The notes under the pieces: model-generated
The model's database searches: none
The model's input: only the letters and a program-made list of their open reading frames with translations
Told to the model about the DNA's origin: nothing
Translations under genes and position numbers: made by a program
Assembly (NCBI GenBank): GCA_963742415.1
Contig: CAVULX010000004.1
Location: 224,001 to 288,000, forward strand
Direction of reading: 5' to 3'
DNA: 64,000 nucleotides
Origin: an uncultured Parachlamydiaceae bacterium
Lineage (GTDB): Bacteria; Chlamydiota; Chlamydiia; Chlamydiales; Parachlamydiaceae
Shown here: piece after piece, positions 40,133 through 58,374 of the stretch
Position numbering within the stretch: the stretch's first letter is position 1
Layout of the letters: every line of letters begins with the position of its first letter

Positions 40133-40828
40133 ATGTATAAAGTGTTTATCGGCACTGAGGAGGCCCAATGGCTTCCAACAGAAGTGCTCAAACATAGCAT
40201 TCTTCGCCGATCCTCCTCGTCCTATGAATTTGTAGAATTAAAGAATATCCCCATTAGCTTAAATATTAAAATGTATACGGGGTTTTCTTTTTACCGTTTT
40301 TCTATTCCCGAAACCTGCCAATTCCAGGGAAGGGCGCTTTATTTAGATGCAGACATCGTCGTCCTGTGCGATCTTAAAGAGTTGTTTGAAATTGAGATAG
40401 ATGGTTATGGCGTCTTATCAAGACCTTATCCTAAGATTAATGGATATTTTACCAGTGTCATGATCATGGATTGTGCCAAGCTCACCAACTGGAAAATTCA
40501 TCAATGGGTCACTCTTATCAATGCAAAAATTGCAGGCTATCGTGATACCATGGCTGCAAACCCGCTAGGGTTGTGCCATAAAGAATTTGGGCCATTGGAC
40601 ACGATTTGGAACGACTTTGATCAATGTTCTGAAAAAACAAAAATACTCCACTATACCTATGTTCCCACACAGCCTTGGAAAAAAGCTGGCCACCCTTATG
40701 CCTATATATTCTTAAAAGAGATGAAGTCGGCGTTAGATGCTTCCGTCTTCTCGGCGGACGAGGTCAAAAAGGAAATTGATGAAGGGCACATCTATCCAGA
40801 GATTCTTGCGGATGCTATGAATTCTTAG
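40133..40828 (+). CDS. GT-A fold glycosyltransferase (GT8-like)
   Basis: TGFSFYRF, ALYLDADIVV (DxD), HYT..TQPWK. Confidence 0.78.
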   Translation: MYKVFIGTEEAQWLPTEVLKHSILRRSSSSYEFVELKNIPISLNIKMYTGFSFYRFSIPETCQFQGRALYLDADIVVLCDLKELFEIEIDGYGVLSRPYPKINGYFTSVMIMDCAKLTNWKIHQWVTLINAKIAGYRDTMAANPLGLCHKEFGPLDTIWNDFDQCSEKTKILHYTYVPTQPWKKAGHPYAYIFLKEMKSALDASVFSADEVKKEIDEGHIYPEILADAMNS

Positions 40829-42095
40829 CACGTGTGCGGGCTAATCTTTGATGAGCCCTTGTGAAATGTTGCGCGCAAATGGCTCCGGTAATCGACAGTT
40901 CCCCTGCCAAAGCTGTGGCTGCGCAGACCTCTGCTAGAGCTTGGGCTTTGCCCGCCCCTGCGAGATTTAAGAGGCGCAGAGCAGCATTTTGAGAAGGAAG
41001 CCCTGTACCACCGCCGACAGTTCCCACCATCAAATTGGGTAAAGTCACTGAGATGTACAGATCTTTTTGAGGGGTTAGCTCAAACCGTGTGACACCTACC
41101 GCAGATTCAGCAACGCAAGCCACATCTTGACCGCAAGCCAAATAAAGGGCTGCAAGGCCGTTAGCATAATGCCCTTGGACTCCAATGGTCCCGCTTAAGA
41201 CCCCCCCTATAGCTGTCATATACCATAGTTTGACCATTTTTTCGGGGGTCGTATGAAGGTATTTTTTGACCAATTCAGCATTCAAATGGACTTCGGAAGT
41301 CACCTTTTTTCCACGCACAGATTGAAAGGACTGCGTGCTCGCTTTTTTATCCCCCGACATGTTGGCTTCGATAAAATAGTGTTGGGGAGCAACAGGGCAT
41401 TTTTCGATGATATAGTTTAAAGCAGCCTCTGTAGCAATCGTGACCATATTTTGTCCGGAAGCGTCACCGGTTATGTACTCAAAAATAATATAGACATGGT
41501 TTCCTTCGATGGTGACCTGGAAATCTTGTAGTTTGGCATACCGGCTTGTGGATTCAGCGGCGGCTTTGATCGTTTGGAGATTCCCTAAGCACCAGTTGAC
41601 GAACAAGCCGACTTCGGAGATGGTTCTGAAAGCAAAACCGGGGGCTCGTGTTATCCCTTCACACAGCAAAGTGGCTGTGCAGCCGCCGGCTTCACTGATG
41701 AGCATCGCTCCCCGATGGTAGGAGGCGACTAGAGCCGCTTCGGTGGTGGCGAGTGGAATATAGAAATCTCCTTGAGCATAGAGGCCGTTAATGCGAAGCG
41801 GGCCAGCCAAGCCGACGGGAATTTTAACCGTGCCGATAAAATTTTCGATGTTATGGTCATATTTTTCCATTAAAGAGGCTGTCTGTGGGTCGAGCAAATA
41901 GGATTTTTGTTCTGCAGGCAAATCAAAAAGGTCCCACCGTTTTTCGACTGAAGAGGGGGTGATCCGGGCGCCCCCTGGAACTCTCGGAGGAAGGGGTGAG
42001 TTTTTTGGAACGAGCCGCTGAAGAAGCTCTTCCTGGGAATGCTTTTCCAGCAATCTTTGCAAATGGTCCTTTCCGAAGCGATAGCCTTTAGTCAT
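40815..42095 (-). CDS. HMG-CoA reductase family protein (class I-like)
   Basis: IENFIG, ATTEAALVAS, GDASGQNM, NMSGDKK, GTVGGGT, C-terminal His (RAHQRL). Confidence 0.92.
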   Translation of the reverse strand: MTKGYRFGKDHLQRLLEKHSQEELLQRLVPKNSPLPPRVPGGARITPSSVEKRWDLFDLPAEQKSYLLDPQTASLMEKYDHNIENFIGTVKIPVGLAGPLRINGLYAQGDFYIPLATTEAALVASYHRGAMLISEAGGCTATLLCEGITRAPGFAFRTISEVGLFVNWCLGNLQTIKAAAESTSRYAKLQDFQVTIEGNHVYIIFEYITGDASGQNMVTIATEAALNYIIEKCPVAPQHYFIEANMSGDKKASTQSFQSVRGKKVTSEVHLNAELVKKYLHTTPEKMVKLWYMTAIGGVLSGTIGVQGHYANGLAALYLACGQDVACVAESAVGVTRFELTPQKDLYISVTLPNLMVGTVGGGTGLPSQNAALRLLNLAGAGKAQALAEVCAATALAGELSITGAICAQHFTRAHQRLARTRAKNS

Positions 42096-42254
42096 ATTAT
42101 CTCGTATAAGTTACAAATTTTTAAATAGCTCAGAATGGGAGCCAAATAATAAATGTTATCACCCAAATAGAATTATAGGCAATCTTAACACTAAACTGGC
42201 AAATAAAGGTTTGTTCGTCATTCCCTTCATTCAGAATCATGCAAATATTTGGAA

Positions 42255-42491
42255 AAACAGACTCGAAATGTGCTTTGCCTAAAAACTTTAGTCTCGACAC
42301 ACTTCAGCCTTTAAAATTACCACAGAGCTCACAGAGAACACAGAGAGTGGTCTTATGAATTATTTAATTAATCCAGACATGTCTGATGAAGAAACACCCT
42401 CTCTGTGTTCTCTGTGAGCTCTGTGGTAATTTTAAAGGCTGAAGTGTGTCGAGACTAAAGTTTTTAGGCAAAGCACATTTCGAGTCTGTTT
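42255..42491. repeat. Long palindrome, 93-bp perfect arms, 51-bp spacer, carrying the cacagag 9-mer motif
   Basis: 42255-42347 is the exact reverse complement of 42399-42491. Confidence 0.95.
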
Positions 42492-56379: not shown

Positions 56380-57113
56380 AATAAGAGTCCTTTTAGTCTA
56401 AAAGACTTGATATCTTTAAACGAGGGCGTCTTTCGCATTTTTATTTCACCGGTAGAGATGTTTGGGGTCCCTTCCGGCATTCCATTTGTTTCAATTTGGC
56501 TTAAAAGTTTTTTTAAGGTCTCGCATTCGAGGCGAGAGGCCTTGTGAATATAATCGATAAAATCATTTTCCCCATTTTTCGAAGCAACGACCCTCTCCAA
56601 TATTTTTCCATCATCGATTTTTTGGTTCATCTTGTGGATTGTAAAACCCGCGGGCTGGTTTTCAGCCAAAGCCCACAAATCACACATCAACCCCCGTTGC
56701 TCAGGCAATAAGCCGTGATGAATATTAAGGCATCCAAGCGGCGGTTGTTTTAAAATTGGTTCCTTATAAAGGTAACGTGTGCGGGCGTTAACGACAAGAT
56801 CAAACTGATGATTACGGAGGAGAGCCAAGGCTTGTTCGCAGTTAATCGTATCCAAAAACCAGACGGGTTTATTGAGTGCATTGTAAGTCTTTAACCGTTT
56901 CGATGAACGGGAGAAGGAGTTGCGGATCAATGTCTTACCAAAGCGAGGAGCTCCTGCCAAGATGAGCGTTAGCCCCTTAAAGAACAGCTTAAGATTGCCA
57001 TTGCGGAGAATTAACAATCCCCCTATTTGGGGGCAGTCGGCCATGCCGCAAATCATTTCATCATAATTGTCCGGAACAAAGGTTATTTCGGACGTAACCA
57101 AAAGAGTTTTCAC
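56376..57113 (-). CDS. Formyltransferase-like protein (N-terminal domain only)
   Basis: LNIHHGLLPEQRG, GFTIH.M..KIDDGKIL. Confidence 0.82.
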   Translation of the reverse strand: MKTLLVTSEITFVPDNYDEMICGMADCPQIGGLLILRNGNLKLFFKGLTLILAGAPRFGKTLIRNSFSRSSKRLKTYNALNKPVWFLDTINCEQALALLRNHQFDLVVNARTRYLYKEPILKQPPLGCLNIHHGLLPEQRGLMCDLWALAENQPAGFTIHKMNQKIDDGKILERVVASKNGENDFIDYIHKASRLECETLKKLLSQIETNGMPEGTPNISTGEIKMRKTPSFKDIKSFRLKGLLL

Positions 57114-57120
57114 AAGAGCC

Positions 57121-58374
57121 TCAATAGTAGTGGGTCAGCCAAACAAAAATGCGGTCTTTTTTTCGATAAGGGCCAATATAACCACTGGTAGGGGTTCCCG
57201 ATCCAATGACCCCGGCTAAAATATCGGCTCTCAACTCTAATTCCCATGAATCTGAAATTTCCCAAGAAAATTTTGGCTGAATCCAACAATCGTAATTATT
57301 TAAACCATGATACAGGAAAACATCAATTTTGTATTGTTTATCTTTTCCAAATTCTTGGTAATATCTAAAGGAAGCGAAATAAAGGGTTTTTTCCCTCCAA
57401 TAATCGCTATGCAATTGAGCCCCGATCGAGGTCCCTTCATCGGTCGTATAATCTAATCCTAGAATGGTGCGCCAAACATTGCGCAGGCGCACGATGCCAA
57501 AGCGATGCACGGTCCACGGCTCATGCAGGTGAAAAACGGTGTCTCCTCTGAGGACGATTTTTTCAAAGGCTTTGCTAATGGTTGCTCCAAAAGTGCTGAT
57601 ATGCTTGAGTTCAGGTTTAACAACCGGCTTGCCGTCATGGGGTCCCACTTTATAGGCCGGATTTCGGTTCCAATGCCGCAGGTAAAAAACGGAAATATCA
57701 ATCCCAGATTCAAATAAATAATTTATTTTTATGCCGTATTCGACATCCTTTCCCCAGCGCCAAACAGAGAATTTGGAAGGGCCTAACAAGGGAAGGGCAT
57801 GGAAAGGTTCAGGAATCACATCGAAAGGGGAGTTTTTACCCGGGTAAAGATTGTTCATGGGAATAGGGGTCACTATGAGTTGCACTGTCCAAGGCTCATG
57901 GAAATATTGCCCATTGAACATGCAAACAGGGATCCGAATCCACCCCAAATCATTTAAAAAGGGGTCGGTATAGTCGCGGGGGTTAACTAAGTCAGCGATA
58001 TAAAGTCCAAAAGTTTCCCCCCAGGCGACTTCTTGAAAGCCGATCTTAATGCTCCAATTGTCGGTATTCCGCTCATAAAATAAAGAGCGGATCTCAAGAT
58101 CTTTTTTGTGCCCTCGGAAGTCATACCAGAGGCGAAACGAGGCTTCGTATAAGTTTAAGGAAGAACAAGCTGGATCTTCTTCGCTGCATTCGCTGCTATA
58201 AGATCCTTTGCCATGGAGATAAGGGCGGCTGCGGGTCATCCCATTTTCTTCAAAACCGCAGGCAAACTGATATCCCGAGTCGAATTCAGTTTTTACATCT
58301 TTCCATTCGAATCCTTCGCAGGGGCAAAAACTTAAAGCAAATAGGATGGTGATTTGAAATAAAAAGCAAAGCAT
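57121..58374 (-). CDS. Outer-membrane beta-barrel protein (DUF1302-like)
   Basis: Signal peptide; IGFQEVAWG, DLVNPRD; C-terminal DRIFVWLTHYY strand. Confidence 0.72.
   Translation of the reverse strand: MLCFLFQITILFALSFCPCEGFEWKDVKTEFDSGYQFACGFEENGMTRSRPYLHGKGSYSSECSEEDPACSSLNLYEASFRLWYDFRGHKKDLEIRSLFYERNTDNWSIKIGFQEVAWGETFGLYIADLVNPRDYTDPFLNDLGWIRIPVCMFNGQYFHEPWTVQLIVTPIPMNNLYPGKNSPFDVIPEPFHALPLLGPSKFSVWRWGKDVEYGIKINYLFESGIDISVFYLRHWNRNPAYKVGPHDGKPVVKPELKHISTFGATISKAFEKIVLRGDTVFHLHEPWTVHRFGIVRLRNVWRTILGLDYTTDEGTSIGAQLHSDYWREKTLYFASFRYYQEFGKDKQYKIDVFLYHGLNNYDCWIQPKFSWEISDSWELELRADILAGVIGSGTPTSGYIGPYRKKDRIFVWLTHYY

Follow-up and report, generated by a model that had tools for sequence, protein, structure and literature searches.

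Gene content and organization of the locus

The window analysed here is a stretch of 64,000 nucleotides from an uncultured Parachlamydiaceae bacterium (assembly GCA_963742415.1, contig CAVULX010000004.1, positions 224,001 to 288,000). Between positions 40,815 and 58,374 it carries two convergent operons, one with export genes and one with a UbiA-superfamily transferase and a phosphoenolpyruvate (PEP) synthase-like dikinase, together with a gene for a protein resembling 3-hydroxy-3-methylglutaryl-CoA (HMG-CoA) reductase, hereafter HMGR-like. The same roles recur around the UbiA/PEP-synthase-like pair in other genomes, and we tentatively read the genes as one functional unit for making and delivering a modified amphiphile. 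The features of the region are the following.

40815–42095, minus strand: HMGR-like thioester reductase, class I type, orphan (Pfam HMG-CoA_red, 385.8 bits, positions 3–368 of 368)
44026–44727, plus strand: ATP-binding cassette (ABC) ATPase, DevA/LolD-like (ABC_tran, 112.4 bits; DevA 198.6 and LolD 188.6 bits, below cut-off)
44727–45932, plus strand: FtsX/MacB-type permease, LolCE-like (Pfam FtsX and MacB_PCD; four hydrophobic segments)
45957–46694, plus strand: LolA-like periplasmic carrier with signal peptide (Pfam LolA_like, 122.9 bits; N-terminal hydrophobic leader)
46712–47809, plus strand: DUF3419 protein of the BtaA family, S-adenosylmethionine (SAM)-dependent (Pfam DUF3419, 214.3 bits)
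47811–49208, plus strand: polytopic membrane protein of 465 aa whose N-terminal half may be CdsA/phytol-kinase-like and whose C-terminal half is possibly related to DUF92 (about 15 hydrophobic segments)
49729–49755, plus strand: terminator-like hairpin separating the two convergent operons (stem of 11 pairs, then a run of T; consensus match only)
50134–52818, minus strand: PEP-synthase-like dikinase of 894 aa with Rph/PigC architecture (PPDK_N, 244 bits; PEP-utilizers, 79.8 bits)
53075–53944, minus strand: divergent UbiA-superfamily membrane transferase (Pfam UbiA, 39.2 bits against a cut-off of 34.2)
53931–55646, minus strand: ANL adenylate-forming ligase (AMP-binding, 158 bits)
55660–56379, minus strand: alpha/beta hydrolase with a Ser-Asp-His triad (Abhydrolase_1/6, Hydrolase_4)
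56376–57113, minus strand: formyltransferase-family enzyme, sugar N-formyltransferase-like (Formyl_trans_N, 45.7 bits)
57121–58374, minus strand: signal-peptide protein, putative outer-membrane barrel (weak DUF1302 match, 25.9 bits against a cut-off of 23.2)
58379–59995, minus strand: 538-aa lineage-specific protein of uncertain cluster membership, 4 nt upstream of the barrel gene

Each gene named in the sequence-only reading was recovered as an open frame at its place and in its family from the list of open reading frames (ORFs), Pfam and NCBIfam, and the two operons it described are indeed tight and convergent, meeting at 49.2–50.1 kb. The family labels held, except that “kinase” (47811–49208) and “beta-barrel” (57121–58374) proved softer than they had been written. 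Intergenic spacing inside each operon ranges from -14 to +24 nt, with one exception of 256 nt between the UbiA and PEP-synthase-like genes, which is occupied by a hairpin repeat. The HMGR-like gene lies 1.9 kb from the ABC gene and is divergent from it, with a flavin reductase gene and repeats in between. Promoter and terminator scans, taken as a whole, did not rise above shuffled sequence.

Recurrence of the gene set in other genomes

Relatives of the PEP-synthase-like protein were collected from one genome per species with 10-kb flanks, giving 79 loci that were scored with the window proteins and with proteins from three of these loci. A close set of 47 loci, with a PEP-synthase-like protein at least 54% identical to that of the window, was separated from a distant set of 32 loci. 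Loci were counted where at least 1 kb (UbiA) or at least 2.8 kb (ANL ligase) of upstream DNA was available, and wide-flank subsets with at least 8 kb on either side comprise 23 close and 15 distant loci.

The co-occurrence that had been proposed from the sequence was borne out: the gene set recurs in other genomes and is not a chance neighbourhood, these genes clustering far more than expected by chance. A UbiA gene lies near the PEP-synthase-like gene in all 42 close loci with enough upstream DNA and an ANL ligase gene in all 38, and the formyltransferase and the hydrolase are found in 37 and 33 of 38, respectively. Among the wide-flank close loci, an amine-capping transferase is present in 23 of 23, a DUF3419 gene in 17, a thioester reductase of any type also in 17, and a lipid kinase of any type in 15, and the export genes are represented by LolA-like (11/23), FtsX (8/23) and ABC (7/23) genes. 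The distant loci also harbor the UbiA (20/25) and ANL (18/21) genes, and their wide-flank subset has DUF3419 (11/15) and GNAT-like (10/15) genes. According to the record labels, the loci come from about a dozen phyla, namely Bdellovibrionota, Verrucomicrobiota, Acidobacteriota, Planctomycetota, Pseudomonadota, Chlamydiota, Gemmatimonadota, Myxococcota, Thermodesulfobacteriota, Bacillota, Bacteroidota and Actinomycetota. Many of the 79 are from Bdellovibrionota and hence are not independent. No characterised cluster with this gene set was found in the literature searched, a search that lay outside subscription journals and MIBiG, in agreement with what the sequence-only reading had stated.

Cluster variants, enzyme replacements and gene fusions

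The loci differ in the families that fill the same roles. Those of type A, found in Bdellovibrionota and others, encode the formyltransferase, hydrolase, ANL ligase, UbiA protein, dikinase, a diverged DUF3419 protein, a LolA-like carrier and a barrel-like protein, along with a conserved trio made up of a DAGK_cat lipid kinase, a NAD_binding_4 thioester reductase and a 709-aa protein whose C-terminal half scores 183 bits against the PigE N-domain and 66 bits against acyl-ACP reductase. The Bdellovibrionota loci are devoid of the HMGR-like and polytopic proteins and have this trio instead. Type B loci, present in three Chlamydiota metagenome-assembled genomes (MAGs), Holophagaceae, Gemmatimonadota, Geobacteraceae, Phycisphaeraceae, Cytophagaceae and gut or rumen Clostridia, often contain HMGR, a shorter ANL ligase, UbiA, the dikinase, DUF3419, the polytopic protein and a GNAT-like protein. 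Type C is represented by the window, two Verrucomicrobia loci and one Terriglobia locus, and combines formyltransferase, ANL ligase, UbiA, dikinase, HMGR, DUF3419 and the polytopic protein; the seven genes are co-directional in one Verrucomicrobia locus (L011) and in the Terriglobia locus (L029), where HMGR lies inside the operon.

Reduction is thus assigned either to the HMGR-like protein or to the NAD_binding_4 enzyme with the acyl-ACP-reductase-like protein, phosphorylation either to the polytopic kinase-like protein or to the DAGK-type kinase, and amine capping either to the formyltransferase or to a GNAT, the loci without formyltransferase having a GNAT-like protein. We regard this filling of roles by unrelated families in different lineages as the strongest indirect evidence on the task of the pathway. 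Members are also joined by gene fusion: the hydrolase and ANL ligase form one 803-aa protein in the B. bacteriovorus locus (L018), a GNAT-like protein is fused to a kinase-like N-domain in a Parachlamydiales MAG (L057), and the metagenomic protein P0308 combines the C-terminal part of a DUF3419 domain with a relative of the polytopic protein. A sphingolipid reading of the Bdellovibrio genes was considered and dropped, as no aminotransferase (Spt-type) domain was found in L018.

These variants also bear on the possibility that there is no single pathway but a mere juxtaposition of an isoprenoid gene with one operon for Lol-like export and another for biosynthesis, their recurrence reflecting a few transferred islands. 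Such an account draws on the incomplete linkage of the export genes (7 to 11 of the 23 close loci) and of HMGR (4 of 23), on the many loci contributed by the single phylum Bdellovibrionota, and on the position of the window HMGR on the opposite strand beyond an unrelated gene. Against it, the same roles are kept in varied gene orders in about a dozen phyla, fusions unite members of the supposedly separate modules, export and biosynthetic genes form a single array in L009, and HMGR is within the operon in L011 and L029. We consider this account quite unlikely.

Putative acid-activating and reducing enzymes

The HMGR-like protein scores 329.4 bits against NCBIfam TIGR00533, below the cut-off of 441.8, and 292 bits against the archaeal class I HMGR 6hr7. 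It is the sole HMGR of the genome, in which, at 84% completeness, neither an HMG-CoA synthase nor a diphosphomevalonate decarboxylase was matched; a mevalonate kinase search yielded 20 bits only, and Dxr was found with 466 bits. The alignment with 6hr7 indicates that the ENxxG, TTE, DKK, GQD, GTVGGGT and xAH motifs are retained. Of these, TTE, DKK, GQD and xAH, which we take to carry the catalytic Glu, Lys, Asp and His, are kept in all 13 cluster-linked HMGR-like copies. In the same 13 copies the Ser of the cis-loop is replaced by Glu relative to 6hr7, and the Lys of the KNL motif by a non-basic residue (M, L, I, V, N, A or S). In canonical enzymes these two positions hold the HMG carboxylate, and their alteration suggests that the substrate is probably other than HMG-CoA. 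In two Chlamydiota loci (L057 and L066) the HMGR gene and the ABC gene are direct neighbours in divergent orientation, and the window arrangement is also divergent. An alternative mevalonate route via a beta-lactone was dropped, type B loci having no hydrolase, type A loci no HMGR, and the hydrolase nucleophile being Ser.

The ANL ligase scores 362 bits against PRK09274 (cut-off 478), 216 bits against LC-FACS and 204 bits against OleC (cut-off 850), and among solved structures it comes nearest to 4-coumarate and fatty-acyl CoA ligases (about 100 bits). The neighbouring hydrolase has a complete triad, with the elbow Ser in AYSWG, the Asp in GEKDQS and the His in AGHALP, at least 95% conserved over 34 aligned homologs. 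Ligase and hydrolase could in principle act as OleC and OleB, turning a beta-hydroxy acid into a beta-lactone and then into a decarboxylated alkene. The ligase aligns over its full length with olefin beta-lactone synthetase models (204 and 197 bits), and the Bdellovibrio hydrolase-ligase fusion recalls the known OleBC fusions. Both scores, however, fall well short of the cut-offs (850 and 900); the generic fatty-acid CoA ligase model fits as well and PRK09274 better. In addition, the conserved nucleophile of the hydrolase is Ser whereas that of OleB is Asp, and neither an OleA thiolase nor OleD was seen by Pfam in the window region. An olefin route is therefore very improbable in our judgement.

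Putative phosphorylation and transfer enzymes

The dikinase has no match to a PEP-binding C-domain in Pfam. Its score against NF004881, which bears the NCBI name PEP synthase, is 1170 bits, above the cut-off of 883, and that against the PEP synthase model TIGR01418 is 280.9 bits, below the cut-off of 739.75. The histidine motif LLSHSAIVARE is intact, and the best solved relative is 5fbs (301 bits). The models of the condensing enzymes RedH (396 bits) and PigC (366 bits) score slightly above that of the kinase Rph (332 bits), and this raises the main rival to our reading, namely that the dikinase is a PigC/TamQ-type ATP-dependent condensing enzyme. It would join an aldehyde supplied by ligase and reductase to an amine or a carbon nucleophile, giving a small secreted metabolite prenylated by UbiA. 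The combination of an ANL ligase, a thioester reductase and a PigC-like protein has a parallel in tambjamine biosynthesis, and the Bdellovibrio trio includes the PigE N-domain match (183 bits) along with thioester reductases that typically stop at the aldehyde. The three scores are nevertheless far below the respective cut-offs of 1350, 1300 and 999 bits, and pyrrole-forming genes were not found in the loci scanned. Moreover, a condensation route would have no need of the lipid kinases that the clusters repeatedly contain and that belong to two unrelated families, and the LolA-like carriers suggest a hydrophobic cargo. We regard such a condensation as unlikely.

For the polytopic protein no Pfam or NCBIfam match was obtained, and PF01148 (CTP_transf_1) was matched neither by the protein itself at E 10 nor by 40 homologs at E 1. 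In their source records the homologs go by the names of dolichol kinase, phytol kinase or polyprenol kinase family. In the homolog P0082 the kinase-like N-domain is fused to a full DUF92 domain (1.6e-70), which replaces the C-terminal half, and P0025 has a DUF92 match at residues 248–366 (26.3 bits, below the cut-off of 27.5); the window protein itself has no such match. The long forms P0272 and P0314 have no informative additional domain. The N-domain model (pLDDT 86.6) gave CdsA 4q2g_A as the top Foldseek match (E 0.037, probability 0.99, TM 0.36), with CdsA in four of the top ten rows, and VIA-align placed CarS 5guf_A at rank 30 with Z 6.0, within helical-protein noise. With the whole model, nothing was found by Foldseek at E at or below 0.001, and VIA-align returned weak helical matches only. 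A profile search of 1.84 billion representatives recovered 1833 representative clusters at E at or below 1e-30, with only the close family, and no bridge to CTP_transf_1, among the matches listed. The label thus derives from the source names of the homologs, the natural DUF92 fusion and a weak fold match rather than from a family match, and a kinase function is likely but unproven.

These tentative resemblances recall phytol salvage to tocopherol in plants and cyanobacteria, in which the phytol kinase VTE5, the phytyl-phosphate kinase VTE6 (DUF92) and the UbiA-family transferase VTE2 act together. The cluster might likewise salvage isoprenoids from a host or prey, a prenol or prenoic acid being reduced, phosphorylated twice and attached by UbiA, with a truly allylic donor. 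The fusion to DUF92, the family of plant VTE6, in P0082 and the phytol and dolichol kinase names of the homologs are in line with this possibility, as are the suitability of UbiA chemistry for allylic donors and the hosts named in the record titles, among them predators, intracellular bacteria and Clostridia of the gut or rumen. Salvage, however, leaves the DUF3419 protein, the amine-capping enzymes and the export genes unexplained. The Bdellovibrionota kinase is of DAGK type and not a prenol kinase, and the dikinase would be redundant if the polytopic protein carried out both phosphorylations. We give this explanation a rather low probability.

The UbiA protein matched no solved structure by sequence. 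Its first Asp-rich motif, YDEIKDYETD, and the RPLARG motif are conserved in 60 aligned homologs.

Predicted head-group enzymes and export genes

The DUF3419 protein belongs to a large family: 6678 of 8000 scored candidates reached E at or below 1e-10, and many among the matches listed bear the JGI name BtaA enzyme. PMC6642084 reports that Rhodobacter BtaA matches Pfam DUF3419. The protein has no solved relative by sequence, and Pfam detected no methyltransferase family, and hence no BtaB-type methyltransferase, among the ORFs from 40.1 to 63.9 kb. Of 201 genomes sampled from the phylum, 33 have DUF3419. A second paralog lies in the same genome outside the window (G000:C4:312468–313517; L104:9442–10527), in an unrelated context, where its neighbours encode a Pot-like ABC importer and a DUF308 protein. 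The same contig also encodes, outside the window, two proteins (L104:15219–15962 and L104:16295–17119) whose DNA-binding domains are Myb/SANT-like, hence of eukaryote type.

The best solved relatives of the formyltransferase are the dTDP-4-amino-4,6-dideoxyglucose formyltransferase 6v2t and VioF, with which its NIHxGLLPxxRG motif aligns; this motif, which includes the active-site Asn-His of N10-formyl-THF formyltransferases, is at least 95% conserved in 38 homologs. The N-capping of an amine that had been proposed is supported by this intact motif and by the replacement of the enzyme by a GNAT elsewhere.

The equivalog scores of the pump and carrier are all below the cut-offs of the models concerned. 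The ABC ATPase, with 188.6 bits against the LolD cut-off of 307.75, is 70% identical to the copy in L009, the closest locus, in which export and biosynthetic genes form one array. The permease reaches 96.1 bits against LolCE (cut-off 362.45), and the LolA-like carrier at most 24 bits against the LolA equivalog models. The “beta-barrel” label of the signal-peptide protein derives from the weak DUF1302 match. Copies of this protein are 51% identical in L009 and 24–30% identical beside LolA-like genes in L034, L074 and L077, and it weakly matches a 355-aa protein beside LolA-like in Bdellovibrio (E 1.9e-5). The cargo of the system is presumably a lipid rather than a lipoprotein.

The adjacent 538-aa protein, with one hydrophobic segment and a Ser/Asn-rich stretch, matched no family and has no homolog in the 79 loci. 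Beside its gene, a 641-aa protein (60200–62125) shows a faint leucine-rich-repeat match and likewise has no homolog in these loci.

Origin of the cluster and associated repeats

Among 40 sampled relatives, no close dikinase ortholog was found, the best match being 32% identical, and the polytopic protein had no match. In one relative (L002; G011:C6:53199–58210), two PEP-synthase-like genes stand in tandem; they belong to another subfamily and share 32% identity with that of the window. A FastTree phylogeny built from 74 dikinases joins the window to L009 (support 99) inside a clade of Bdellovibrionota, Verrucomicrobia, Terriglobia and Planctomycetota, and the three other Chlamydiota dikinases fall in the other major clade (support 98), which suggests that the dikinase was acquired laterally. 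The HMGR, DUF3419 and polytopic proteins of the window are closest to the three other Chlamydiota loci, with 47–65% identity. As these affinities differ from those of the dikinase, the cluster looks as if it had been put together from two sources. In L057, an RHS-repeat protein (15960–17741) and a protein with a transposase DNA-binding domain (20833–21687) lie beside the type B cluster, neighbours that fit a mobile context.

Three hairpin elements of about 200–240 bp are present in the window (52834–53071, 42255–42491 and 7368–7564), with arms of 90, 93 and 66 nt, respectively, that are 94–100% complementary. They are mutually unlike in sequence. The first fills the gap between the UbiA and dikinase genes, a gap that is absent in L009, and the second lies between the HMGR and flavin reductase genes; both belong to families dispersed in the genome, with 127 and 75 matches on both strands, fragments included. 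The flavin-reductase-like gene (42580–43149), between HMGR and the ABC operon, has repeats on both sides and a homolog in none of the 79 loci. Upstream of the ABC operon, a tandem array (43460–43629) consists of about five copies of a 34-nt unit with 87–100% identity.

A proposed route to an envelope lipid

Our preferred reading is that of one functional unit, a laterally mobile cluster that would make a modified amphiphile, most likely an envelope lipid, and deliver it to the outer membrane; we advance it tentatively, as quite possible though short of probable. In this proposal the hydrolase would free a carboxylic acid, which the ANL ligase would activate as a CoA thioester. The HMGR-derived reductase, no longer an HMG-CoA enzyme, could then convert the thioester into a primary alcohol with four electrons, and the polytopic CdsA/phytol-kinase-like protein followed by the Rph/PigC-type dikinase might turn the alcohol into a phosphate and then a diphosphate. 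The divergent UbiA enzyme would pass the activated group to an acceptor, the BtaA-family DUF3419 enzyme would add an aminocarboxypropyl (amino-acid-like) group from SAM, and the amine would be capped by the formyltransferase. Finally, the product could cross the envelope by way of the ABC pump of MacB/LolCDE-like type, the carrier resembling LolA and the DUF1302-like barrel. We infer this route throughout from the chemistries of the families, and the order of the transfer, aminocarboxypropylation and capping steps as well as the identity of both substrates are guesses. The path from acid through thioester, alcohol and phosphate to UbiA that the sequence-only reading had sketched is partly supported, and indirectly, by the enzyme replacements, the orphan HMGR-like gene and its two altered pocket positions.

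Several observations weigh against the proposal. The UbiA step is its weakest point. To our knowledge, UbiA enzymes use allylic diphosphates or phosphoribosyl pyrophosphate (PRPP), and a saturated alkyl diphosphate donor would be unprecedented; the donor may thus be an allylic alcohol (2-enoyl-derived or isoprenoid) and not a saturated one, or UbiA may act on a phosphate acceptor. At the site of the second motif, canonically DxxxD in the UbiA superfamily, the residues conserved in the 60 aligned homologs are the non-canonical E193, R196, K197 and E204, and no polyprenyl synthase or acceptor-making gene is found in the cluster. The dikinase is about equally close to the condensing enzymes PigC and RedH and to the kinase Rph, and the kinase label of the polytopic protein is weak, given the lack of a family match, the Foldseek E of 0.037 and the Z of 6.0. 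Moreover, the HMGR-like gene (4 of 23 close and 3 of 15 distant wide-flank loci) and the polytopic protein gene (2 of 23 and 6 of 15) occur in a minority of loci, export genes are linked in just a third to a half, and the window HMGR-like gene stands 1.9 kb off the ABC operon, with the flavin reductase gene and repeats intervening. Finally, the second DUF3419 paralog, 25% identical to the cluster copy, indicates that this family is not bound to one function.

In its broadest form, the proposal would amount to a bacterial pathway, widely distributed and hitherto undescribed, that makes surface lipids of a new class. It would combine an HMGR-descended reductase, a kinase pair, a UbiA ether-type bond from a non-isoprenoid or salvaged donor, an N-capped homoserine-like head group and Lol-like placement in the outer membrane, and would be common to the environmental chlamydiae, to Bdellovibrio, Verrucomicrobia and Acidobacteria, and to gut Clostridia. 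We hold this extension to be somewhat unlikely. Our reading, if right, would name a function for several large orphan families together, such as the polytopic family (1833 clusters) and DUF3419 (6678 proteins), give a descendant of HMG-CoA reductase a new job outside the mevalonate pathway and involve enzymes of the Rph/PigC type in the primary chemistry of the envelope, and could bring to light a new lipid on the surface of predators, of intracellular bacteria and of members of common soil phyla. As Bdellovibrio can be cultured and is amenable to genetics, the question is directly testable.

Comparison with known systems

The HMGR-like protein resembles the class I HMGR of the mevalonate pathway in its full-length domain and catalytic motifs, and differs from it in that the pathway partners were not found, Dxr is present and the pocket residues are altered.

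With Rph, PigC and RedH the dikinase shares the ATP-grasp domain, the large central domain, the histidine swivel domain and the lack of a PEP-binding domain, whereas it belongs to a separate family (NF004881), is almost always paired with a UbiA gene and scores far below the cut-offs of the named models. Phytol salvage by VTE5, VTE6 and VTE2 would have in common with the proposed route a membrane kinase that may be of CdsA-like type, a second phosphorylation and UbiA transfer from a diphosphate, and DUF92 is linked to the kinase-like domain through the fusion in P0082. In contrast to phytol salvage, a ligase with a thioester reductase would here apparently supply the alcohol, UbiA has an Rph/PigC-type dikinase as its constant partner, the polytopic protein has no CTP_transf_1 match, and BtaA-family, formyltransferase and export genes are added.

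The cluster DUF3419 protein falls in the Pfam family that, according to PMC6642084, is matched by the BtaA of Rhodobacter betaine lipid synthesis; unlike the BtaA/BtaB system, the cluster has no BtaB-type methyltransferase and a formyltransferase or GNAT in its place. Finally, the ABC ATPase, the FtsX/MacB-type permease and the periplasmic LolA-fold carrier are features shared with LolCDE-LolA, the MacB pumps and DevBCA, whereas the equivalog scores are all below cut-off and the export genes are here coupled to a DUF1302-like protein and to biosynthetic genes.

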